64,000 nt of DNA, from contig CAVRUT010000013.1 of the NCBI GenBank assembly GCA_963724465.1, positions 64,958 through 128,957 on the forward strand, in the 5' to 3' direction. The position numbers were made by a program, and so were the translations under genes. A model generated the notes under the pieces. The model ran no database searches. It was given only the letters and a program-made list of their open reading frames with translations, and had not been told where the DNA came from. Positions 5,501 through 45,041 of the stretch are shown piece by piece. Position 1 is the first letter of the stretch. Each line of letters begins with the position of its first letter. Origin of the DNA: an uncultured Acidobacteriota bacterium (GTDB lineage: Bacteria; Acidobacteriota; Thermoanaerobaculia; UBA5066; Gp7-AA6).

Positions 5501-5959
5501 GTTGACCGACGTCAACTCCCCGTCGGCGTTGAAGTGCGCCCGCACCATGCCCGCAAAGACCGGGACGCCGCGGTAGGTCTGCGCGTAGCTGACGTGTCGT
5601 CCGCCGAGACCGTCGCCCCTCTCCTCGCTGACCTGCATCTCGGCGTCCACGTCGCGCAGGCCGAAGATGCCCGAGTATTCCTTCAGAAATGCCGCCGACT
5701 TCTCGCGCGCCGAGCCCGAGATCCCTCCCATCAGGTCGCCGCGTTCGCCCGGCGCGATGCCGGCGAATCTCACGGCACCGGTCGCCGCGGAGACGCTGAC
5801 CCGCGCGCGGCCGCCCATCCGATCCTCGAGCCGTCGGATCCCTGCCGGGTCCAGCGCCTTGCCTTTCCCGTTCCCCTTCTCGGCGGCCCCGGCCGACCCC
5901 GAGCCTGCTAGAAGGAGAACGAAAGTGAACGCCGAGACGAGGAAACCCATCCTTCGCAT
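2567..5959 (-). CDS. secreted M4 (thermolysin-like) zinc metallopeptidase with PA-domain insert and C-terminal beta-sandwich domains; reading frame broken at least 3 times
   Basis: Three track ORFs are consecutive parts of one protein. 4610..5959 has the signal peptide, propeptide and HEWSH...GLIYQWQPGALNESYSDIFGE (thermolysin HExxH/NExxSD). 3895..4617 has the PA domain and M4 C-terminal part. 2567..3826 has the C-terminal domains. Frame changes near the C5 run 4652..4656, near ~3920 and near ~3850. Confidence 0.8.
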
Positions 5960-10105: not shown

Positions 10106-10222
10106 GATCCACGCGGCCAGAAGGAGGCCCGACGCGATGTACGCCGGAGCGATGAAGGGGGTCAGGAACGCGAACAGGCACAGCAGCGAAAAGGCAAGCG
10201 AGCGGTCGACCAGGCGATCCCG

Positions 10223-10264
10223 CCGTCCGCCGTCCGCCGTCTGCCGTCCGCCGTCTTCCGTCGA
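10223..10264 (-). repeat. heptanucleotide tandem array, 6 x CCGTCYG (+ strand) / GACGGNN (transcript sense)
   Basis: CCGTCCG CCGTCCG CCGTCTG CCGTCCG CCGTCTT CCGTCGA read directly. Starts 5 nt after the trm112-like stop (10269..10271). Confidence 0.85.
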
Positions 10265-11921: not shown

Positions 11922-12704
11922 CTAGTCCACCCTCACTTGCACCCGCTCGATCTTCCGCGCCCTCCCGGTGGCCTCGTCCACGTCGATCACCGCGCCCGAG
12001 AGCCGGATGTCCTTCTTCGCCGTCTCGAAGGAGCGCGGGGTCTGCGACAGGAATTTCTCGATGATGCGGTCCTTCGAAAAGCCGATGATTCCCTCGTAGG
12101 CGCCGGTCATCCCGGCGTCCGAGAGATAGGCGGTTCCGCCGGGGCGAATCGTCTCGTCGGCGGTAGCCACGTGCGTGTGGGTCCCGACCACGGCGGAAAC
12201 GCGGCCGTCGAGGTACCAGCCCATCGCGGCCTTCTCGGACGTCGCCTCGGCGTGCATGTCGACTACGATCACTTTCACGTCGCCCGCGCGGGCGAGCTCG
12301 TCGTCGGCCACCCGGAAGGGCGAGTCCGCGTGGTGCGGCATGAAGACCTGCCCCTGAAGGTTCAGGACGCCGACCGGGACGCCCGAAGCCGTCGCCTGCA
12401 CGGTCCAGCCCCGGCCGGGGTTACCCGGGGGGTAGTTGGCCGGCCGCAAGAGCCGGTCCGAGGCGTTCAGCGCGTCGTAGATCTCCTTCTTGTCCCAGAT
12501 GTGGTTGCCCGAGGAGAAGACGTCGATCGGCATCTTCGAGAGCTCCTCGAAGAGGTCGACGGTCAGGCCGAAGCCGCCGGCCGCGTTTTCGACGTTGACG
12601 ACCGTGAAGTCGATCCGGTGGCGGTCGATCACGCCCGTGAGGGCCTCGACGAGCGCGCGCCGGCCCGGCGCTCCGACGACGTCGCCGACGAAGAGGATGT
12701 TCAC
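11922..12704 (-). CDS. ymdB: YmdB-like (TIGR00282) metallophosphoesterase
   Basis: NILFVGDVVG...VNVENAAGGFG...GNHIWDKK...VDMHAEATSEK...GTHTHVATAD. Conserved rny-ymdB synteny as in Bacillus. Confidence 0.85.
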   Translation of the reverse strand: MNILFVGDVVGAPGRRALVEALTGVIDRHRIDFTVVNVENAAGGFGLTVDLFEELSKMPIDVFSSGNHIWDKKEIYDALNASDRLLRPANYPPGNPGRGWTVQATASGVPVGVLNLQGQVFMPHHADSPFRVADDELARAGDVKVIVVDMHAEATSEKAAMGWYLDGRVSAVVGTHTHVATADETIRPGGTAYLSDAGMTGAYEGIIGFSKDRIIEKFLSQTPRSFETAKKDIRLSGAVIDVDEATGRARKIERVQVRVD

Positions 12705-12709
12705 AGGAC

Positions 12710-12796
12710 GTGAACCGCGAGCCGTGAGCCGTGAGCCGGACGCTCTGCGGGGTGACGACAGCTTCGGCTCACGGCTAACGACTTACGGCTTACGAG
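12710..12796 (-). repeat. two-armed heptad repeat element between rny stop and ymdB-like start
   Basis: + strand arm 12710..12737 is GTGAACC GCGAGCC GTGAGCC GTGAGCC. Arm 12762..12796 is CTTCGGC TCACGGC TAACGAC TTACGGC TTACGAG. The arms are reverse complements of each other. Confidence 0.85.
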
Positions 12797-12804
12797 GCCG
12801 GCCC

Positions 12805-14373
12805 TCACCGGGCATACTCCACGGCGCGAGTCTCTCTGATCACCGTGACCTTGATCTGCCCCGGGTACTGCAGCTCGGCCTCGATCTTCTTGGCCACGTC
12901 GCGCGACAGCCACAGGGCCTCGTCGTCGGTGACCCGGTTGGCTTCGACGACGATACGCAGCTCCCGACCTGCCTGGATCGCAAAGGCCTTCTGCACGCCC
13001 TTGAAGCCATCGGCGATGTGCTCGAGCTTTTCCAGGCGCTTGACGTACGTTTCGAGGATCTCGCGCCGTGCCCCCGGGCGCGCCGCGGACAGGGCGTCGG
13101 CGCCGTTGACGAGGACCGCCTCGAGCGAGCGCGGCTCGTAGTCGCCGTGGTGGCACTCCATGGCGTGGATGACCTCGTTCGACTCGCCGAATTTCTTCAG
13201 GACCTCGCGGCCGAGCTCGAGGTGGGTGCCTTCCATCTCCCGGTCGATCGCCTTGCCGATGTCGTGCAGCAAACCCGCGCGGCGCACGACCTCGACGTTC
13301 GCCCCGAGCTCCGCCGCCATGTTCATCGCGAGCCAGCCGACCTCCTTGGAGTGCTGCAGCACGTTCTGGCCGTACGAGGTGCGGTACTTCAGGCGCCCGA
13401 GCATCTTGATGAGCTCGGGATGGAGGTCCGGGATGCCGAACTCGAGGGCCGTCGCCTCCCCTTCCTGGCGGATCTTTTCCCAGAGCTCCGAGCGGACCTT
13501 CTCGACGATCTCCTCGATGCGCGCGGGGTGGATGCGGCCGTCGACGATGAGCTTCTCGAGGGCGTGCCGTGCGACCTCGCGGCGCAGCGGCTCGAAGGCC
13601 GAGATGACGATCGCCTCGGGAGTGTCGTCGATGATGAGGTCGACGCCCGTGGCCGCCTCGAGGGCCCGGATGTTGCGGCCCTCGCGCCCGATGATCCGGC
13701 CCTTGAGGTCGTCGGACGGAAGCTCCACGACCGAGACCGTCGCCTCGACGACAGTGTCGGAGGCCAGGCGCTGGATCGCCATCCCGATGATGCGCCGCGC
13801 CTTCTGGGTGGCCTGCTCGTTGGCCTCTTCCTCGATCCGGCGGATCAGGCCGGCCGACTCGAGCCGCGCCTCGTTCTCGACCGACTTGACGAGATCGCGC
13901 CTGGCGTCCACGGCCGTCAGGCCCGAGATCTGTTCGAGGCGCCTGCGCTGCTCGTCGACGACCTTCTGGACCTCGGCCTGCAGGTCCTCGAGCTTCTTCT
14001 GCTCGTCGCCGAGGGCCTTCTCCTTGCGGCTGTACTCCTCGTCCCGCCGCTCCTGCTGAGCGAGCTTTCGGTCGAGGTTCTCTTCCTTCTGCTGGACCCG
14101 TTTCTCGAGGGCGGCGATTTCCTGGCGGCGGGCCTGCACCGTCTTGTCGAACTCGACGCGGGCGGCGAGGACCTTCTCCTTGGCCTCGATGTCGGCTTCC
14201 CGGATCTTGGAGTCCGCCTGCTTGCGGGCCTCGGCCAGAGCCCGATCCGCCTCGGTCCGGATCCCGAGACGCTCCCGCTCGACCTTCTTGCGCAGGAAGA
14301 GGTAACCGATGGCCAGGAGAACCGCGGCGAGGACGAGTCCCGCCGCGATCGCCATCGCGAAAGATGTGTTCAT
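12805..14373 (-). CDS. rny: ribonuclease Y
   Basis: N-terminal TM helix, long coiled coil, KH ([15 protein letters not shown]) and HD (LLHDIGKA) domains. Preferred ATG 14373 ([12 protein letters not shown]); the track start is 14385. Confidence 0.9.
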
Positions 14374-21543: not shown

Positions 21544-21619
21544 TGGTAGGCGCTAACGGGATCGAACCGTTGACCTCTTCCGTGTGAAGGAAGCGCTCTC
21601 CCAGCTGAGCTAAGCGCCT
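21544..21619 (-). tRNA. tRNA-Val (anticodon CAC), CCA encoded
   Basis: Hand-folded cloverleaf: acceptor AGGCGCT/AGCGCCT, D arm GCTC..GAGC, anticodon stem CTTCC/GGAAG with loop TTCACAC, T arm AACGG-TTCGATC-CCGTT, then ACCA. Confidence 0.9.
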
Positions 21620-21633
21620 GAAGTTCGAAGAAT

Positions 21634-21708
<75 letters not shown>

Positions 21709-30020: not shown

Positions 30021-30042
30021 GCGGGCTCGAGCCCGCTTTTTT
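30021..30042 (+). terminator. intrinsic-terminator-like hairpin in the rimP/nusA leader (candidate attenuator)
   Basis: Perfect palindrome GCGGGC-TCGA-GCCCGC followed by TTTTTT, ending 5 nt before the rimP ATG. Confidence 0.5.
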
Positions 30043-30047
30043 GTTCG

Positions 30048-30589
30048 ATGAAAACGCCTCTAGGTGAAAGAACGACCCTCGAAATCGAGGCCATCGCGCG
30101 GGAGAAGGGGTGCCGGTTGCTGGCCATCGAGTCGGCCGGAACCGGACGCTTCACCGTGCTCCGGGTCGTGCTCGAGCGGCAGGACGGCGGTGCCGTGACG
30201 GTCGAGGACTGCGAAGCCGTTTCGCGCGACGTCTCGCCGGTCCTCGACGCGTCCGACGAGATCCCCCACCGCTACACCCTCGAAGTCTCCTCGGCGGGCC
30301 TCGACCGCAAGCTCTACTCGCTCGAGGACGCCGAGCGATTCGTCGGCCACCGCGTCCGAGTGAAGACCGACGAGCCCGTCGTCCCGCGACCCCTCGAAGT
30401 GCCGGGCGCGAAGCCCCCGGCGATCTCGCCGGCGCGCAACTTCGGCGGACTGCTCGAGAAGGTGAACGGGGACGTGCTGACCGTCGTTGATGAGGCGGAA
30501 CGCAGAATCTATAATGTCCGTTTCGGCGATATTCGACTCGCCCGGCTCGACTTCGAGTGGCCGGAGCGGGGCGATAGGAGATCGGGTCC

Positions 30590-30593
<4 letters not shown>
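30048..30593 (+). CDS. rimP: ribosome maturation factor RimP
   Basis: 181 aa, GCRLLAIESAGTG..LRVVLER...YTLEVSSAGLDRKL, immediately upstream of nusA with ATGA overlap. Confidence 0.85.
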
Positions 30594-32032
<1,439 letters not shown>

Positions 32033-32042
32033 AGCGCGCCGC

Positions 32043-34866
32043 ATGGGAAAGATCCGAGTCGAAGAGCTCGCACAGCAGATGGGCCTTCCGAGCAAGGAAG
32101 TTCTCTTCCTGCTGCAGTCGATCGGCGTCGACGTGAAGTCGCCGCAGGCCGCGCTCGATGAGTCCACGGTCCTCGCCATCCTGCAGGGGCGCACGCACGC
32201 GCCCAAACAGCTGATCGTCCGGGACACCGAGGCGCGCGCGGCCCGGCCGCAGAAGAGCGCGTTGAACCGCATCAAGATCATCGACCGCCCGGCGCCGGCC
32301 ACGGCAGCCGAGGCGCCCGAAGGCCACGAAGCGGCGGCCCCGCCGCCCGAGCCGGAGCTCCCGCCGGCCGCCCGCAGAGCCGCGGCCGCCGCCGAAGCCA
32401 AGGCCGCAAAGGCGCGCCGCCGAACCCGCCCGGACCGCGGTCGTGCCCTCCGAACCGGAAGCCGAGGCGCCACCGCCCAAGCCCGCGCCCCCGGCGCTGC
32501 CTCGAAAAATCGTCCTTCCACCGCGCCCGACGGTGCCGCCGCGACCCGCGCCCGCGTCAGCGGGTGCAGCCCGCGCCGCGGGTCCGGTCAACCGGCCGAT
32601 GGGACCGGCCGCCGGCCGGCCCATGGGGCCTGCCGCAGGACGTCCGATGGGACCCGCCGCGGGCCGCCCGATGGGCCGCCCGGCCGGACCCTCGGTCTAT
32701 CGCCCCACCCCCGGCGGTCCGGGAGCGCGCCCGATGGGCGGACCCCCGCGCCCCGGGGCGCCCGTCGGCCGCACGGCCCCCGCCGGCCCGGAGCGCGGCG
32801 CGCCCAAGCGCAAGAAGGACGACAAGGAAGAGCAGAAGAAGGCCGCCGCCGGGAAGCGCGGCGCGCGCCCGAAGATCACGGTCGCCGACGAGGTGGACCT
32901 GCGCGAGTTCGTCGGGACGTACCAGGAGGACACCTACTCGGACATCTCGCTGCCGCTCATCGAGAAGACCGGCGAGGAGGGCGAGGCCGTGGCCGAAGCG
33001 CGCCCGGCCTCCAAGTCGGCCATCCGGCGCGCCGCCAAAGAGACCCGTACGCACGATTCGGGGAAGCTCCTCGAGTTCCGCAAGCCCGCGCCCACGGGCC
33101 CCGTGTTCTTCACCGAGGGCGTCACCGTCAAAGAGCTCTCCGAGAAGCTCGGCGTGCTCGCCCGCGACATCCAGCGCCTGCTCATGCAGCGCGGCGTGCT
33201 CGCGACGGTCAACCAGGCCCTCGACGCTTCCACCGCCGTGCAGATCGCCAAGGAAATCGGAGTCGAAGCCGCGGTCGTCTCCTTCGAAGAGGAGCTCGAC
33301 CTCTCCCGCTCAGCCCGCGAGTCCACCGAGGGCGCAATCGCCACGGAGCGCGTGCCGCGCGCGCCCGTCGTGACCGTCATGGGCCACGTCGACCACGGCA
33401 AGACGTCCTTACTCGACGCCATCCGGCAGACCGACGTCGCGGCCGGCGAGGCCGGAGGCATCACGCAGCACATCGGCGCCTACCGGGTCCAGATTCACGG
33501 CAAGCCGATCGTCTTTCTCGACACGCCCGGCCACGAGGCCTTCACGTCCATGCGCGCGCGCGGCGCCAAGGCCACCGACATCGTCGTCCTGGTCGTCGCG
33601 GCCGACGACTCCGTCATGCCGCAGACGATCGAGGCGATCGCGCACGCGAAGGCCGCGAAGGTGCCGATCGTGGTGGCGATCAACAAGATCGACAAGCCCA
33701 ATGCCAACGTGGACCGGGTCAAGAAGGAGCTCGCCGACCACGGCGTGCTGCTCGAGGCCTGGGGCGGCGAGACTCCGGCGGCCGAGGTCTCGGCGCTGAA
33801 GAAGCAGGGCATCGACCACCTGCTCGAGCTCATCCTGCTCGTGGCCGACATGCAGGAGCTGACGGCCCCGGCGGCCGAGGAGGCGCGGGGCGTCGTCCTC
33901 GAGGCGCGGCGCGAGGCCGGCCGCGGCAACATGGCGACGGTCCTGGTACAGGCCGGCACGCTCAAGGTCGGCGACGTCTTCTTCGCGGGCTCGGTTTTCG
34001 GCCGCGTGCGCTCGATGCACGACGACCGCGGCGAGAAGGTCAACGCGGCCGGCCCCGCGACACCGGTCGAGGTGACCGGTTTCGAGGACCTGCCCCAGGC
34101 GGGGGACACGTTCCAGGTGGTCGAGGACGAAACCAAGGCCCGGTCGGTCGTCTCGTTCCGCCAGCAGAAGGAGCGGGAGAAGGCGATGGCCGGCAGCTCC
34201 CGCCTCTCGCTCGAGCAGCTGTTCAGCAAGATCCAGGAAGGCAAGGTCAAGGACCTGCCCATCATCCTGAAGGCGGACGTCTCGGGCTCGATGGAAGTGC
34301 TGTCGCAGGCGCTCAAGGGGCTTTCGAACGACAAGGTGAAGATTTCTCTACTGCACGCGGGAGTCGGCGCCATCACCATCAACGACGTCCTGCTCGCGTC
34401 CGCCTCCGGCGCGGTGATCGTGGGCTTCAACGTCCGGCCCGAGAAGAAGGCGGCCGACGAGGCCGAGAAGGCCGGCGTCGAGATCCGCCTCCACACGGTC
34501 ATCTACAACGTCACCGACGAGATCAAGAAAGCCATGGAAGGGCTGCTCGAGCCCACCCTGAAGGAGGTCGCGCGGGGGCGCGCCGAGGTGCGCAACACGT
34601 TCAAGGTGCCGAAGTTCGGCGTCGTCGCCGGCTGCTACGTCACCGAGGGCACGATCCCGCGCAGCGCCCAGGTTCGCCTTCTGCGAGACAACCGGGTGAT
34701 CTACGAGGGCAAGGTCGGGTCGCTGCGCCGCTTCAAGGACGACGTCTCGGAGGTCAAACAGGGCTTCGAATGCGGCATCGGCCTCGACCGGTACCAGGAC
34801 CTGAAGGTGGGCGACATCATCGAGGCGTTCCAGGTCGAGAAGGTCGCCGGGGTGATGGGTTCGTGA
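32043..34866 (+). CDS. infB: translation initiation factor IF-2; N-terminal domain is in a different frame from the rest
   Basis: IF2_N domain [29 protein letters not shown] is in frame 32043. The Pro/Ala-rich linker, second IF2_N, G domain ([26 protein letters not shown]) and C-terminal domains are in frame 32443..34866. The shift lies somewhere in 32300..32445. Confidence 0.9.
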
Positions 34867-34952
34867 GCCGTTAGCCGGGAGCCGTTAGCCGACAGAGGTC
34901 CTGCCCCGGCTCACGACTCACGGTTCACGGCTCACGGTTCACGGCTTACGTC
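34863..34952 (+). repeat. two-armed heptad repeat element spanning infB stop to DUF503 start
   Basis: Left arm GTGAGCC GTTAGCC GGGAGCC GTTAGCC GACAGAG. Right arm TCACGAC TCACGGT TCACGGC TCACGGT TCACGGC TTACGTC. The infB TGA is inside the first heptad; ATG at 34955. Confidence 0.9.
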
Positions 34953-34954
34953 CC

Positions 34955-35242
34955 ATGGTGATCGCCTACGCCGTTTTCGACCTCCACCTGCCCGGATGCC
35001 GGGGCCTGAAGGAGAAGCGGATGATCGTCAAGAGCCTGAAGACGCGCATCCGGAACGAATTCCAGGTCTCGGCCGCGGAAGTCGCGAACCAGGACCTGCT
35101 GCAGCGCGCGGCGCTCGGCGTGGCCGCCGTCGGGAGCGACCAGCCGACGCTCGACGCGGTCCTGCAGCACGTCCTTCAGTTCGTCGAGGAAAACCTCGAC
35201 GGGGAGATCCTCGAGTATCGCAATGAGTTCATCCATGTGTAG
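34955..35242 (+). CDS. DUF503 (YlxP-like) protein
   Basis: 95 aa, VFDLHLPGCRGLKEKRMIVKSLKTRIRNEF. Conserved position between infB and rbfA. Confidence 0.8.
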   Translation: MVIAYAVFDLHLPGCRGLKEKRMIVKSLKTRIRNEFQVSAAEVANQDLLQRAALGVAAVGSDQPTLDAVLQHVLQFVEENLDGEILEYRNEFIHV

Positions 35243-35338
35243 GCCGGAAGCCGTAAGCCGAAAGCCGAAAGCCGAAAGCCCGAGCCACACCCGCTCCGGC
35301 GAGCCTCGGCTCACGACTCACGGCTCACGGCTCACGGC
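35239..35338 (+). repeat. two-armed heptad repeat element spanning DUF503 stop to rbfA start
   Basis: Left arm GTAGGCC GGAAGCC GTAAGCC GAAAGCC GAAAGCC GAAAGCC. Right arm TCACGAC TCACGGC TCACGGC TCACGGC, directly abutting the rbfA ATG 35339. Confidence 0.9.
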
Positions 35339-35719
35339 ATGAAGAAAGACTCTCGCCGCAGCCAGCGCGTGGCCGACGTCGTCCGGGCAGAACTGTCGCG
35401 GCTCGTTCTGCTCGAGACGCACGACCCGGACCTGCGCGGCGTCACGGTCACCGACGTGGAAATGCCGCCCGACTTGAGGTCGGCGCGCGTGTACTTCTCC
35501 TGCCTCGGCGGCGACGACGAGCGCGAGAAGGCGGGAGCCGCGCTGCGCCGTGCCGCGGGCTACCTGCGCCGGGAGGTCGGGCAGCGCTGCCAGCTCCGCT
35601 ATGCGCCGGAGCTGCACTTCCTCTCCGATCGGTCCCTCGAGCGCGGCGCGCGGATCGAGGAGCTTCTCCATCAGGTGCTGCCGCCCGCGGCCGAGCGCGA
35701 CGACGAGGAGCCCGAATGA
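35339..35719 (+). CDS. rbfA: ribosome-binding factor A
   Basis: 126 aa, SQRVADVVRAELSRLVL...DPDLRGVTVTDVEMPPDLRSARVYFS...LRYAPELHF. Confidence 0.9.
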   Translation: MKKDSRRSQRVADVVRAELSRLVLLETHDPDLRGVTVTDVEMPPDLRSARVYFSCLGGDDEREKAGAALRRAAGYLRREVGQRCQLRYAPELHFLSDRSLERGARIEELLHQVLPPAAERDDEEPE

Positions 35720-36642
35720 CGGCGCCCGACGCGTTGAAGCGCGGCTACCTCCTGCTTCTCGACAAGCCCGAGGGCCTGACCTCGCACGACGTCGTGGAGC
35801 GCGTCCGCAAGGCGACGGGCCTTCCGCGCATCGGCCACAGCGGGACACTCGACCCGATGGCGACCGGGTTGCTCCTGCTCTGCGCGGGGGGTGCCGCCCG
35901 CCTCCAGGGCTTCTTCACGCTCATGGACAAGTCCTACGAGGGCGTCATCCGGCTCGGCCGCGCGACGACCACGTACGACCGGGAAGGCGAGGCCGTCGGC
36001 CCCGACCGGGACGCGACGGGCGTGACTACCGCGAGGATCGCCGAGGCGGCCGAGGCCTTCCGAGGGGAGTTCCTGCAGGCGCCGCCGCCCTACTCCGCCA
36101 AGAAGGTGGGGGGCCGCAAGTTCTACGAGATGGCGCGAAAGGGCGAGGCCGTTCCGTCGCTGCCGAAGAAGGTCCGCGTCACGAGCCTGACTTTCGGCGA
36201 GCCCTCGGAGGGCCGGCTGCCCTTTGCGATCGCCTGCTCCTCGGGCACCTACATCCGCTCGATCGCCAGCGAGCTCGGCGAAAAGCTCGCCTGCGGCGCC
36301 CACCTCGATTCGTTGCGGCGCACGCGGATTGGATCCTTCAAAGTCGAGGACGCCGTGACCCTCCAGCGGTTCGAGTCTCTGTCGCCGGCCGAGCGCCTGG
36401 CGGCGCCGCACGCCCTGCCCCTGTCGCGCGTGCCCTTCCCCTTCCCGAGGGTCCAGCTCGCTTCGCTGGAGGCCTGGAAGATCCGGCGCGGCCAGGCGGT
36501 CCCGGCCCGCGGCGTCAATGCCCGGCAGGGCGACTGGGTTACCCTCGTCGGGCCCTCCGACGACATGCTGGCCCTCGGCCAGGTCAACCCGATCGGGGAC
36601 CGCGGAGTGGCCATGATCAAGCCGAGGATCGTGCTGGCCTGA
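35716..36642 (+). CDS. truB: tRNA pseudouridine(55) synthase
   Basis: LLLDKPEGLTSHDVV...GHSGTLDPMATGLLLL (catalytic Asp motif). ATGA overlap with rbfA. Confidence 0.9.
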   Translation: MTAPDALKRGYLLLLDKPEGLTSHDVVERVRKATGLPRIGHSGTLDPMATGLLLLCAGGAARLQGFFTLMDKSYEGVIRLGRATTTYDREGEAVGPDRDATGVTTARIAEAAEAFRGEFLQAPPPYSAKKVGGRKFYEMARKGEAVPSLPKKVRVTSLTFGEPSEGRLPFAIACSSGTYIRSIASELGEKLACGAHLDSLRRTRIGSFKVEDAVTLQRFESLSPAERLAAPHALPLSRVPFPFPRVQLASLEAWKIRRGQAVPARGVNARQGDWVTLVGPSDDMLALGQVNPIGDRGVAMIKPRIVLA

Positions 36643-36742
36643 TTCGCTTCCGCCTCCCGGCGGCTGGCATCCCGCCCCCGGGCTATGGTAGGCTTCGCGG
36701 CTTATTAAAAAGAGTGAGTGTTTTGAGTAGCTTGGAGGCAAG

Positions 36743-37018
36743 GTGAACGTCACCGAATACGAGTCCGGCAAGACGGATATCGTCAAGCAGTACCGGACGC
36801 ACGACACCGACACGGGATCTCCGGAGGTCCAGGTCGCGCTCTTGACCAACCGCATCGCGTACCTGACCGAGCACTTCCAGTCGAACGCGAAGGACCACCA
36901 TTCTCGCCGCGGCCTGCTGCAGATGGTCGGGCGCCGTCGCCGGCTCCTCGAGTATCTCCGGAACGAAGACGCCGATCGCTATCACAAGCTGATCGAGCGC
37001 CTCGGTCTGCGCAAGTAG
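36743..37018 (+). CDS. rpsO: 30S ribosomal protein S15
   Basis: [50 protein letters not shown], unmistakable S15. GTG start after GGAGG. Confidence 0.9.
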
Positions 37019-37040
37019 TCCGTCCGGCGCCGGACTCCCC

Positions 37041-37066
37041 CGCCGCGGCCCCGCCGCGGGCTTTCG
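37041..37066 (+). terminator. GC-rich stem-loop after rpsO / in pnp leader
   Basis: CCGCGG-CCCCG-CCGCGG followed by GCUUUCG. A second palindrome GTCCGGCGCCGGAC lies at 37022..37035. The U-tract is weak. Confidence 0.35.
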
Positions 37067-37124
37067 CCGACCTTCCCCCACGGACGGTCGTCCTCCGACG
37101 CCATTCACAAGAAGGGTGAAGACC

Positions 37125-39353
<2,229 letters not shown>

Positions 39354-39381
39354 ATTTCGGAGGTCGGATTTCGGATTTGAA
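39354..39381 (+). repeat. single-arm heptad array immediately after pnp stop
   Basis: TAG then ATTTCGG AGGTCGG ATTTCGG ATTTGAA, followed by the small hairpin GCGGC-AGAGGC-GCCGC and ACTTTTCATTT. Confidence 0.8.
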
Positions 39382-39404
39382 GCGCGGCAGAGGCGCCGCA
39401 CTTT

Positions 39405-45013: not shown

Positions 45014-45041
45014 GGGGTTCGAATTTCGAATTTCGAAATTA
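45014..45041 (-). repeat. AT-rich heptad array between upstream stop and quinone oxidoreductase start
   Basis: + strand GGGGTTC GAATTTC GAATTTC GAAATTA. In transcript sense UGA-UAAUUUCG AAAUUCG AAAUUCG AACCCCG, then GAGG SD and AUG 45004. TTCGAA cores are palindromic. Confidence 0.8.

Follow-up and report, generated by a model that had tools for sequence, protein, structure and literature searches.

The 64,000-nt window studied here (positions 64,958 to 128,957 of contig CAVRUT010000013.1, from an uncultured Acidobacteriota bacterium) has a G+C content of 69% and carries on its plus strand, from 30048 to 39353, a block of genes in which Pfam identifies rimP, nusA, infB, DUF503 (ylxP-like), rbfA, truB, rpsO and pnp. 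Terminator-like hairpins with T-runs, found by a terminator scan at 30021 and 39384, bound this block, and the operon region holds one promoter-like site, upstream in rimP. The DUF503 gene is flanked by two long hairpins built of inverted tandem arrays of 7-nt units (heptads), which we call E1 (34863..34950, at the infB–DUF503 junction) and E2 (35243..35338, at the DUF503–rbfA junction). A preliminary description of this DNA had read the two hairpins as features of the nusA–infB–rbfA operon, suited to reinitiation or to RNase III-type processing at these junctions. We find instead that they are copies of a dispersed family, with a third member (E3) elsewhere in the window and others in many soil-bacterial genomes, and that members of this family lie against stop codons, turn over rapidly and slip independently in their two arms.

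The infB stop codon lies inside the first heptad of E1, as had been described, and the 5' arm pairs with the final four of the six heptads in the 3' arm. RNAfold joins 34862..34891 to 34921..34950 by 27 pairs, in helices of 10, 5, 7 and 5, where an alignment by hand had counted about 25 of 28. The minimum free energy (MFE) is −57.9 kcal/mol (z −3.85), and none of 200 dinucleotide shuffles was equally stable. The DUF503 ATG at 34955 stands 4 nt beyond the last heptad, and in an extended MFE structure AUGGG pairs with UCCCAU, a pairing that involves the start codon's A and U. A fold of the stretch between stop and start leaves 0 nt unpaired after the stop and 6 nt before the start. Tandem Repeats Finder (TRF) detects a period-14 substructure separately in each E1 arm, a sign that the arms slipped independently.

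At E2, the DUF503 stop codon falls within a degenerate heptad, GTAGGCC, and full heptads run from GGAAGCC onward (35246..35280). The fold is a series of periodic 4–6 bp helices with small internal loops between them, in keeping with what had been proposed from the letters, and its stem reaches from the nucleotide after TAG to the nucleotide before the adjoining rbfA ATG, with 0 nt unpaired on either side. Its MFE is −53.3 kcal/mol (z −5.24), again unequalled by any of 200 shuffles. The antisense RNA is the more stable (−72.2 versus −53.3 kcal/mol). In the sense strand, A.C mismatches arise from the GAAAGCC units. The 3' arms of E1 and E2 share an identical 16-mer, GGCTCACGACTCACGG, which includes the odd second heptad GACTCAC, and are alike over about 33 nt with 2 mismatches (by eye); this sharing points to copying between loci 380 nt apart.

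E3 lies between the stop codon of rny (RNase Y; TGA 12807..12805) and the GTG start codon of ymdB (12704..12702), 9 nt after the former and 5 nt before the latter, and folds with an MFE of −61.1 kcal/mol (z −5.2). TRF reports period-7 arrays of 4.3–6.3 copies at E1, E2 and E3, all between genes identified by Pfam. The three elements are 86–96 nt long, with units of the form NNNAGCC in the 5' arm and GGCTNAC in the 3' arm; their spacers are mutually unrelated. The window contains 11 occurrences of the pattern AGCCGNNAGCC, where 1.9 would be expected. Three single-arm arrays were also located, so that this one stretch of one genome holds three heptad hairpins and three single arrays in 64 kb; a canonical terminator (39384..39399, with a tail to about 39409) lies downstream of the ATTTCGG-type array. 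The placing of stop and start codons at the stem base, with no Shine–Dalgarno (SD) sequence, was upheld for both E1 and E2 by the folds and by a scan of gene starts in the window: no SD-like motif was found ahead of DUF503, rbfA or ymdB, and one is present ahead of nusA, infB, truB, rpsO and pnp.

Table 1. Heptad-repeat features of the window and the genes around E1 and E2; E3 and the three single-arm arrays were absent from the preliminary description
Feature	Position	Strand	Remarks
infB (IF2)	32043..34866	+	Pfam IF-2; stop inside E1; frame change near 32300..32440
E1 5' arm	34863..34891	+	GTGAGCC GTTAGCC GGGAGCC GTTAGCC G; holds infB TGA 34864..34866 in heptad 1
E1 spacer/loop, 16 nt	34892..34907	+	ACAGAGGTCCTGCCCC
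E1 3' arm, six heptads	34908..34950	+	GGCTCAC GACTCAC GGTTCAC GGCTCAC GGTTCAC GGCTTAC G
DUF503 (YlxP-like), 95 aa	34955..35242	+	Pfam PF04456, E 3.5e-30
E2 5' arm	35243..35280	+	GCC GGAAGCC GTAAGCC (GAAAGCC)x3; directly 3' of DUF503 TAG 35240..35242
E2 spacer with small stem-loop of its own	35281..35307	+	RNA fold
E2 3' arm	35308..35338	+	GGCTCAC GACTCAC GGCTCAC GGCTCAC GGC; adjoins rbfA ATG 35339
rbfA	35339..35719	+	Pfam PF02033
E3, third family copy	12710..12795	-	rny–ymdB spacer; TRF
Single-arm array (CCGCCGT)x6	10220..10262		spacer; TRF
Single-arm ATTTCGG-type array	39353..39378	+	directly 3' of pnp stop
Single-arm array (TTCGAAT)x3	45018..45037		13 nt upstream of minus-strand ATG

Dispersal and turnover of the heptad hairpins

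The pattern AGCCGNNAGCCGN{8,38}GGCTNACGRCT matches only E1–E3 in the window (0 of 100 shuffles match) and at least 119 loci in the GTDB species-representative collection. The matches listed come from metagenome-assembled genomes (MAGs) labelled Gemmatimonadota, Acidobacteriota (including Thermoanaerobaculia), Planctomycetota, Chloroflexota, Bacteroidota, Nitrospirota, Patescibacteria and others. Many of them are not chance matches, since further heptads flank them; some actinobacterial and proteobacterial ones resemble chance or coding matches. The hairpin form AGCCGTN/NACGGCT stands in MAGs of many phyla beside hairpins of unrelated heptads. Among 2.9 million viral contigs in IMG/VR the pattern matched 8 stretches, and the family is therefore not notably phage-borne. 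An assembly artefact was rejected as the source of the elements, since many assemblies made independently in different projects contain them.

A TRF census of 205 loci (1.37 Mb) yielded 90 heptad hairpins, of which 36 have units that bear no relation to the search pattern. The 8-kb loci around the matches contain inverse heptads as diverse as AGTAAGG/ACTCCTT, GTAAATC/GATTTAC, AAAGTGC/GCACTTT, GTAGTCG/CTACCGA and GTTACAA/TGTAACC, and one genome often has several unit families. That unrelated units adopt the same architecture defines a general class, two inverse 7-mer arrays around a short spacer, in which the unit is free to vary. Thermoanaerobaculia-like DNA made up 237 kb of the census and held fourteen of the hairpins; the 239 kb surrounding distant DUF503 homologues of other phyla held none.

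The invariant feature of the class is its abutment to stop codons. Of 81 census hairpins placed between called genes, 51 lie in co-directional, 18 in convergent and 12 in divergent spacers, some of the last being mis-calls; these proportions (63/22/15%) compare with 67/15/17% for gene pairs in the background. In co-directional spacers the first heptad follows the stop by a median of 3 nt and lies within 15 nt of it in 42 of the 51 cases; convergent spacers give a median of 3.5 nt at either side. The last heptad precedes the first possible co-directional start by a median of 9 nt. Background spacers measure 59–146 nt, whereas hairpins at the two studied junctions leave 0–5 unpaired nt after the stop and 0–12 before the start.

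These two junctions were compared in relatives whose DUF503 proteins are 72–92% identical, obtained by a protein-to-contig search and a metagenome scan, several of them being short metagenomic contigs; the nearest public DUF503 proteins carry the label Thermoanaerobaculia (Acidobacteriota). At DUF503–rbfA, the spacer measures only −4 to 12 nt in 15 of 24 relatives, TGAcgcgcgATG being one example, and a heptad hairpin is present only in the window and in three relatives (L125, L135 and L144). The L125 hairpin is made of GGAAGAC/GTCTACC units and ends in ...GGC ATG, as in the window. Two relatives (L138, L139) have direct heptad arrays in this position and three (L140–L142) other palindromes. 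From this distribution E2 is a recent, lineage-specific gain. The 15 relatives maintain the same gene order without E2, an outcome that the preliminary description had itself named as refuting its reading. In L140 (334..440) and L142 (4286..4360) the palindromic repeat is a different one, containing TGTCATTCTGAGCGAAAGCGAAGGATC and TGTCATCCCGAGCGAAGCGAGGGATC; it resembles a REP-like soil-bacterial family.

At infB–DUF503, 18 junctions, counting that of the window, are informative; a heptad hairpin is present in at least 13 and a degenerate one in two others. These hairpins belong to at least six unit families, with units GTGAGCC/GGCTCAC, GGAAGAC/GTCTCCC, CTGTCCG/CGGACAG, AGCTGTC/GACAGCT, ACGTTAA/ACGTTTC and GGCGGGC-like. 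In L131 the order of the arms is reversed (GGCTCAC...GTAAGCG). Three relatives (L132–L134) have spacers of 27–42 nt without a hairpin, one with GGAAGGAAGG ahead of the ATG. L002 and L004 encode the same DUF503 protein. Identity between them is 94–96% in the flanking coding DNA but drops to about 50% in the spacer, which indicates wholesale replacement of the spacer.

A third junction of the operon, truB–rpsO, has a GGAAGAC/GTCTACC-type hairpin directly 3' of the truB stop in L001 (11607..11684) and L127 (about 5640..5720) only. In these two it precedes the rpsO start by about 70 nt and stands ahead of a conserved rpsO leader, which most relatives keep. The window and eleven other relatives lack a hairpin at this junction, and L128 and L139 have direct AAAGTCA/AAAGGNC-type repeats. 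RNAalifold found 0 and 3 compensatory pairs among orthologues of the same unit family, which are few and differ by many heptad indels; the covariation analysis is uninformative because these indels scramble the alignments. Across relatives, then, the architecture persists and the sequence does not.

Comparison with known repeats and hairpins

The closest precedent is the inverted GGGAATC pairs of Xanthomonas. These heptamers form 70–75 inverted pairs per genome and are transcribed; the type of repeat (single or inverted pair) is usually kept between species, its length varies and its function is unknown (Rehm et al., 2015; PMC4692102). E1–E3 likewise consist of 7-nt intergenic tandem units in two convergent arrays on opposite strands, which form a stem–loop. 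The Xanthomonas repeats are a single unit family, and their G-tract units have been studied as G-quadruplex formers. In contrast, the present class comprises many unit families in many phyla, lacks G-tracts (GTGAGCC/GGCTCAC has no runs of three G, one GGGAGCC excepted) and shows a documented tight abutment to stops and starts.

Repetitive extragenic palindromic (REP) sequences and REPINs are dispersed extragenic imperfect palindromes that lie mostly after genes, between convergent or co-directional open reading frames (ORFs) (Di Nocera et al., 2013; PMC3733652). The adjoining ORF often takes its stop codon from their termini, their abundance varies among strains, and they have been proposed to act in mRNA stabilization or termination (PMC3733652). 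The heptad hairpins resemble them in being dispersed, extragenic, situated behind genes and stop-codon-supplying. REPs have units of 20–40 nt with a conserved GTAG or CGTC tag, and those with GTAG are linked to REP-associated tyrosine transposases (RAYTs). The hairpins differ in having tandem 7-mer arms of variable number and spacers that are not conserved; no terminal tag of either kind, nor a unit of that length, was identified in E1–E3.

Direct TAACTGA heptamers occur in Beggiatoaceae, Cyanobacteria and Bacteroidetes just upstream of starts that lack a ribosome-binding site (RBS) (MacGregor, 2015; PMC4679880); the part of this source that treats simple sequence repeats (SSRs) gives heptanucleotides as the most abundant long class in many bacteria. 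Like these arrays and the short tandemly repeated repetitive (STRR) heptamers of cyanobacteria, the present ones are intergenic, end a few nucleotides from RBS-less starts, sometimes overlap the upstream stop and offer stops in three frames. TAACTGA repeats are, however, almost always direct arrays (1 inverted in 170 sets), and the unit and the taxa differ. The 3' arm of the DUF503–rbfA hairpin in L144 (823..905) has AACTGAC/AACTGAT units, which are the TAACTGA heptamer of the direct repeats in Beggiatoaceae and cyanobacteria.

Coupling by RNA unfolding has been described for phage f1 genes VII–IX and for the MS2 coat and lysis genes (reviewed in PMC12548453). In those cases, as at E1, E2 and E3, the hairpin ends beside the downstream start, whose region is occluded, the upstream ORF stops in or near the stem, and the downstream gene's signals for independent initiation are weak. 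The phage hairpins are unique, conserved and experimentally proven, whereas those described here are polymorphic members of a repeat family known from sequence.

Other known elements fit less well. Rfam 15 identified only two tRNAs in the window at the gathering threshold and, at E ≤ 10, only miRNA-hairpin noise. Miniature transposable elements with inverted repeats (MITEs) and CRISPR were both rejected, the spacers being unrelated and no target-site duplication separating filled from empty sites. The searchable open-access literature yielded no account of hairpins like these in Acidobacteriota or Gemmatimonadota. The class is barely described in that literature: what is known are the GGGAATC pairs of Xanthomonas and the direct arrays of TAACTGA or STRR type, to which no function has been assigned.

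Explanations for the position of the hairpins

We consider it probable, though far from settled, that E1–E3 are REP-like heptamer-repeat palindromes, dispersed, of fast turnover, lying immediately 3' of stop codons and often supplying the stop codon themselves, rather than a conserved operon regulator. Slipped-strand duplication of 7- or 14-nt units would lengthen the arms, and the unit families, several of which coexist in one genome, would spread between loci, perhaps through ectopic conversion or a hairpin-recognising enzyme. E1–E3 are presumably co-transcribed within the rimP-to-pnp and rny–ymdB units, because no U-tract or terminator tail follows them and essential genes lie downstream. 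The transcripts would fold into stems of about 25–30 bp, and a ribosome terminating 0–5 nt from the stem base would have to melt the outer heptads, which would release the final, complementary heptads together with the SD-less start codon next to them. Coupling that in relatives needs only a 6-nt spacer would in this way survive the insertion, by RNA unfolding and/or reinitiation; insertion would be tolerated at junctions with an ancestral spacing of ∼6 nt because the folded stem keeps stop and start close. Such a course of events fits both the RNA-unfolding and the scanning model of translational coupling (PMC12548453). The stem may also act as a barrier to 3' exonucleases or as a substrate for RNase III. 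The elements may plausibly affect translational coupling or the stability of the mRNA, and the hairpins themselves would be tolerated or mildly modulatory passengers.

Several observations weigh against this reading. The hairpin at infB–DUF503 is kept in at least 13 of 18 junctions through full replacement of its sequence, which could reflect selection and make it more than a passenger, and the tiny leftover spacers could likewise reflect function rather than tolerance. Folding shows no strand bias: among 53 co-directional cases the sense RNA is the more stable in 27 and the less stable in 26, and G.U pairs number 109 in the sense and 108 in the antisense strand. Since the sense strand folds no better, the case for a function at the RNA level is weakened. 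SD-like motifs are rarer after hairpins (8 of 39) than ahead of other called genes (145 of 423), as a trend only (p=0.11). There was no target-site duplication or conserved internal sequence, and no mobilising enzyme turned up, the proteins of the window not having been screened for RAYT. The genome scan is biased by its search pattern, the matches listed are a lower bound, and the census gene calls come from a crude heuristic of third-position G+C and ORFs that was checked on the operon of the window. Finally, the effect on coupling is purely one that we infer.

The most serious competitor, to which we give an appreciable if minority weight, is that the hairpins are neutral or selfish palindromic microsatellites acting at the DNA level, with no RNA function, and that their geometry merely marks where insertions are non-lethal in a compact genome. 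The strand symmetry of stability and G.U counts and the A.C mismatches in the sense strand of E2 are as expected on this view, as are the rapid gain, loss and replacement of the elements, the independent slippage of each arm and a gene context close to background; in addition, heptanucleotide SSRs are mutationally favoured in many bacteria according to work cited in PMC4679880 and PMC4692102. Such microsatellites would not, however, account for leftover spacers far below background length, nor for the retention of the infB–DUF503 hairpin in most relatives. Neutral slippage also does not predict that the 5' arm is richer in purines than the 3' arm, as it is in 28 of the 36 hairpins identified without bias as to sequence. 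This asymmetry is not due to the direction of transcription, because a palindrome reads alike on both strands. Stop codons were considered as its cause, a weak candidate given that stops in all frames are present in 12 of 36 5' arms and 8 of 36 3' arms.

Somewhat less likely, and entertained only tentatively, is that the hairpins are mRNA 3' elements in the sense of REPs, serving as exonuclease barriers and/or RNase III sites that segment the message and give infB, DUF503 and rbfA differing stabilities. RNase III processes the nusA–infB and rpsO–pnp transcripts of Escherichia coli, which favours such a role. The stems, of about 25–28 bp with single mismatches, are long enough to be candidate RNase III substrates, and they follow stops directly in co-directional and convergent spacers alike; the truB–rpsO hairpin too sits beside a stop and far from the next start. 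Such roles have been ascribed to REPs, whose termini provide stop codons as well (PMC3733652). Against this stand the lack of strand bias in stability, the variable presence of the hairpins among close relatives and the 12 of 81 that lie in apparently divergent spacers, some of them mis-called.

A reading developed from the preliminary description makes E1 and E2 dedicated cis-regulatory hairpins that would bridge stop and start, so that a terminating ribosome reinitiates on the SD-less downstream gene much as in a shunt. The geometry and the missing SD are real and recur at E3 and in relatives: stop and start meet at the stem base with 0 and 0 nt to spare at E2 and 0 and 6 nt at E1, and DUF503, rbfA and ymdB each follow a hairpin without an SD-like motif. 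Relatives that lack E2 keep the −4 to 12 nt spacing of classical coupling, the infB–DUF503 hairpin persists through at least six unit families, and across the class a hairpin ends a median of 9 nt from the start. The dedicated role, however, was not supported, and we regard it as unlikely. E2 is polymorphic, being absent from 15 of 24 relatives, and L132–L134 have no hairpin of the E1 type. Reinitiation cannot be the point of the hairpins in convergent spacers (18 of 81) or of those at truB–rpsO, about 70 nt upstream of the rpsO start. Neither folding nor G.U pairing favours the sense strand, E2 being stabler as antisense, and the depletion of SD motifs across the class is not significant. The 35S RNA of cauliflower mosaic virus offers a ribosomal shunt, in which a short ORF terminates a few nucleotides ahead of the base of a large stem and translation resumes just beyond the stem; this is a eukaryotic 40S mechanism, and its likeness to E1 and E2 is an analogy only. 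We know of no established bacterial equivalent.

A bolder form of this proposal, which we hold to be more doubtful still, would have the hairpins act as intercistronic 'bridges' across phyla, a register-tolerant repeat stem letting the terminating ribosome unmask, or reinitiate on, the SD-less gene, with selection rather than insertion bias keeping the infB–DUF503 hairpin. Transcription terminators or attenuators without a U-tract are very improbable: strong GC-rich stems do stand directly 3' of stops, but no T-run follows E1–E3 and only 7 of the 90 census hairpins have one, so that they are not canonical terminators; the terminator scan gives only the canonical T-run terminators at 30021 and 39384, and the essential genes rbfA and truB lie downstream without an evident promoter of their own.

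Taken as ordinary repeats, the hairpins no longer call for an operon-specific regulator, the appearance of which is explained away. This carries a warning for the annotation of Acidobacteriota, Gemmatimonadota and other soil phyla: a long 'conserved' hairpin at an operon junction may belong to a repeat family. It also offers a handle on two questions: why bacteria favour heptanucleotide repeats, and whether coupling proceeds by unfolding or by ribosome scanning. The handle rests on the 3-nt median after stops, the near-zero unpaired spacer before starts and the survival of the architecture through sequence replacement. Junctions that are filled, empty or differently filled, such as the 25 at DUF503–rbfA (window included), form a natural test series.

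Gene calls and other features of the window

The infB gene of the window extends over two frames: one, which the ATG at 32043 opens, encodes an N-terminal IF2_N domain; the other, the +1 frame that ends at 34866, encodes a second IF2_N, the GTPase and the C-terminal domains. IF2 is intact in relatives, at 953–962 aa, and many genes are broken in L003, a contig from the metagenome sample that gave L001. The frame switch is probably an assembly indel and not biology. Because the broken frame hints at assembly indels, the heptad copy numbers in the window may be one unit off. The linker region of infB also contains a 24-nt tandem repeat in 4 copies (32592..32687), which encodes PMGPAAGR four times. 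Elsewhere in the window, two adjacent tRNA-Val genes with anticodons CAC and GAC occupy 21544..21708 on the minus strand.

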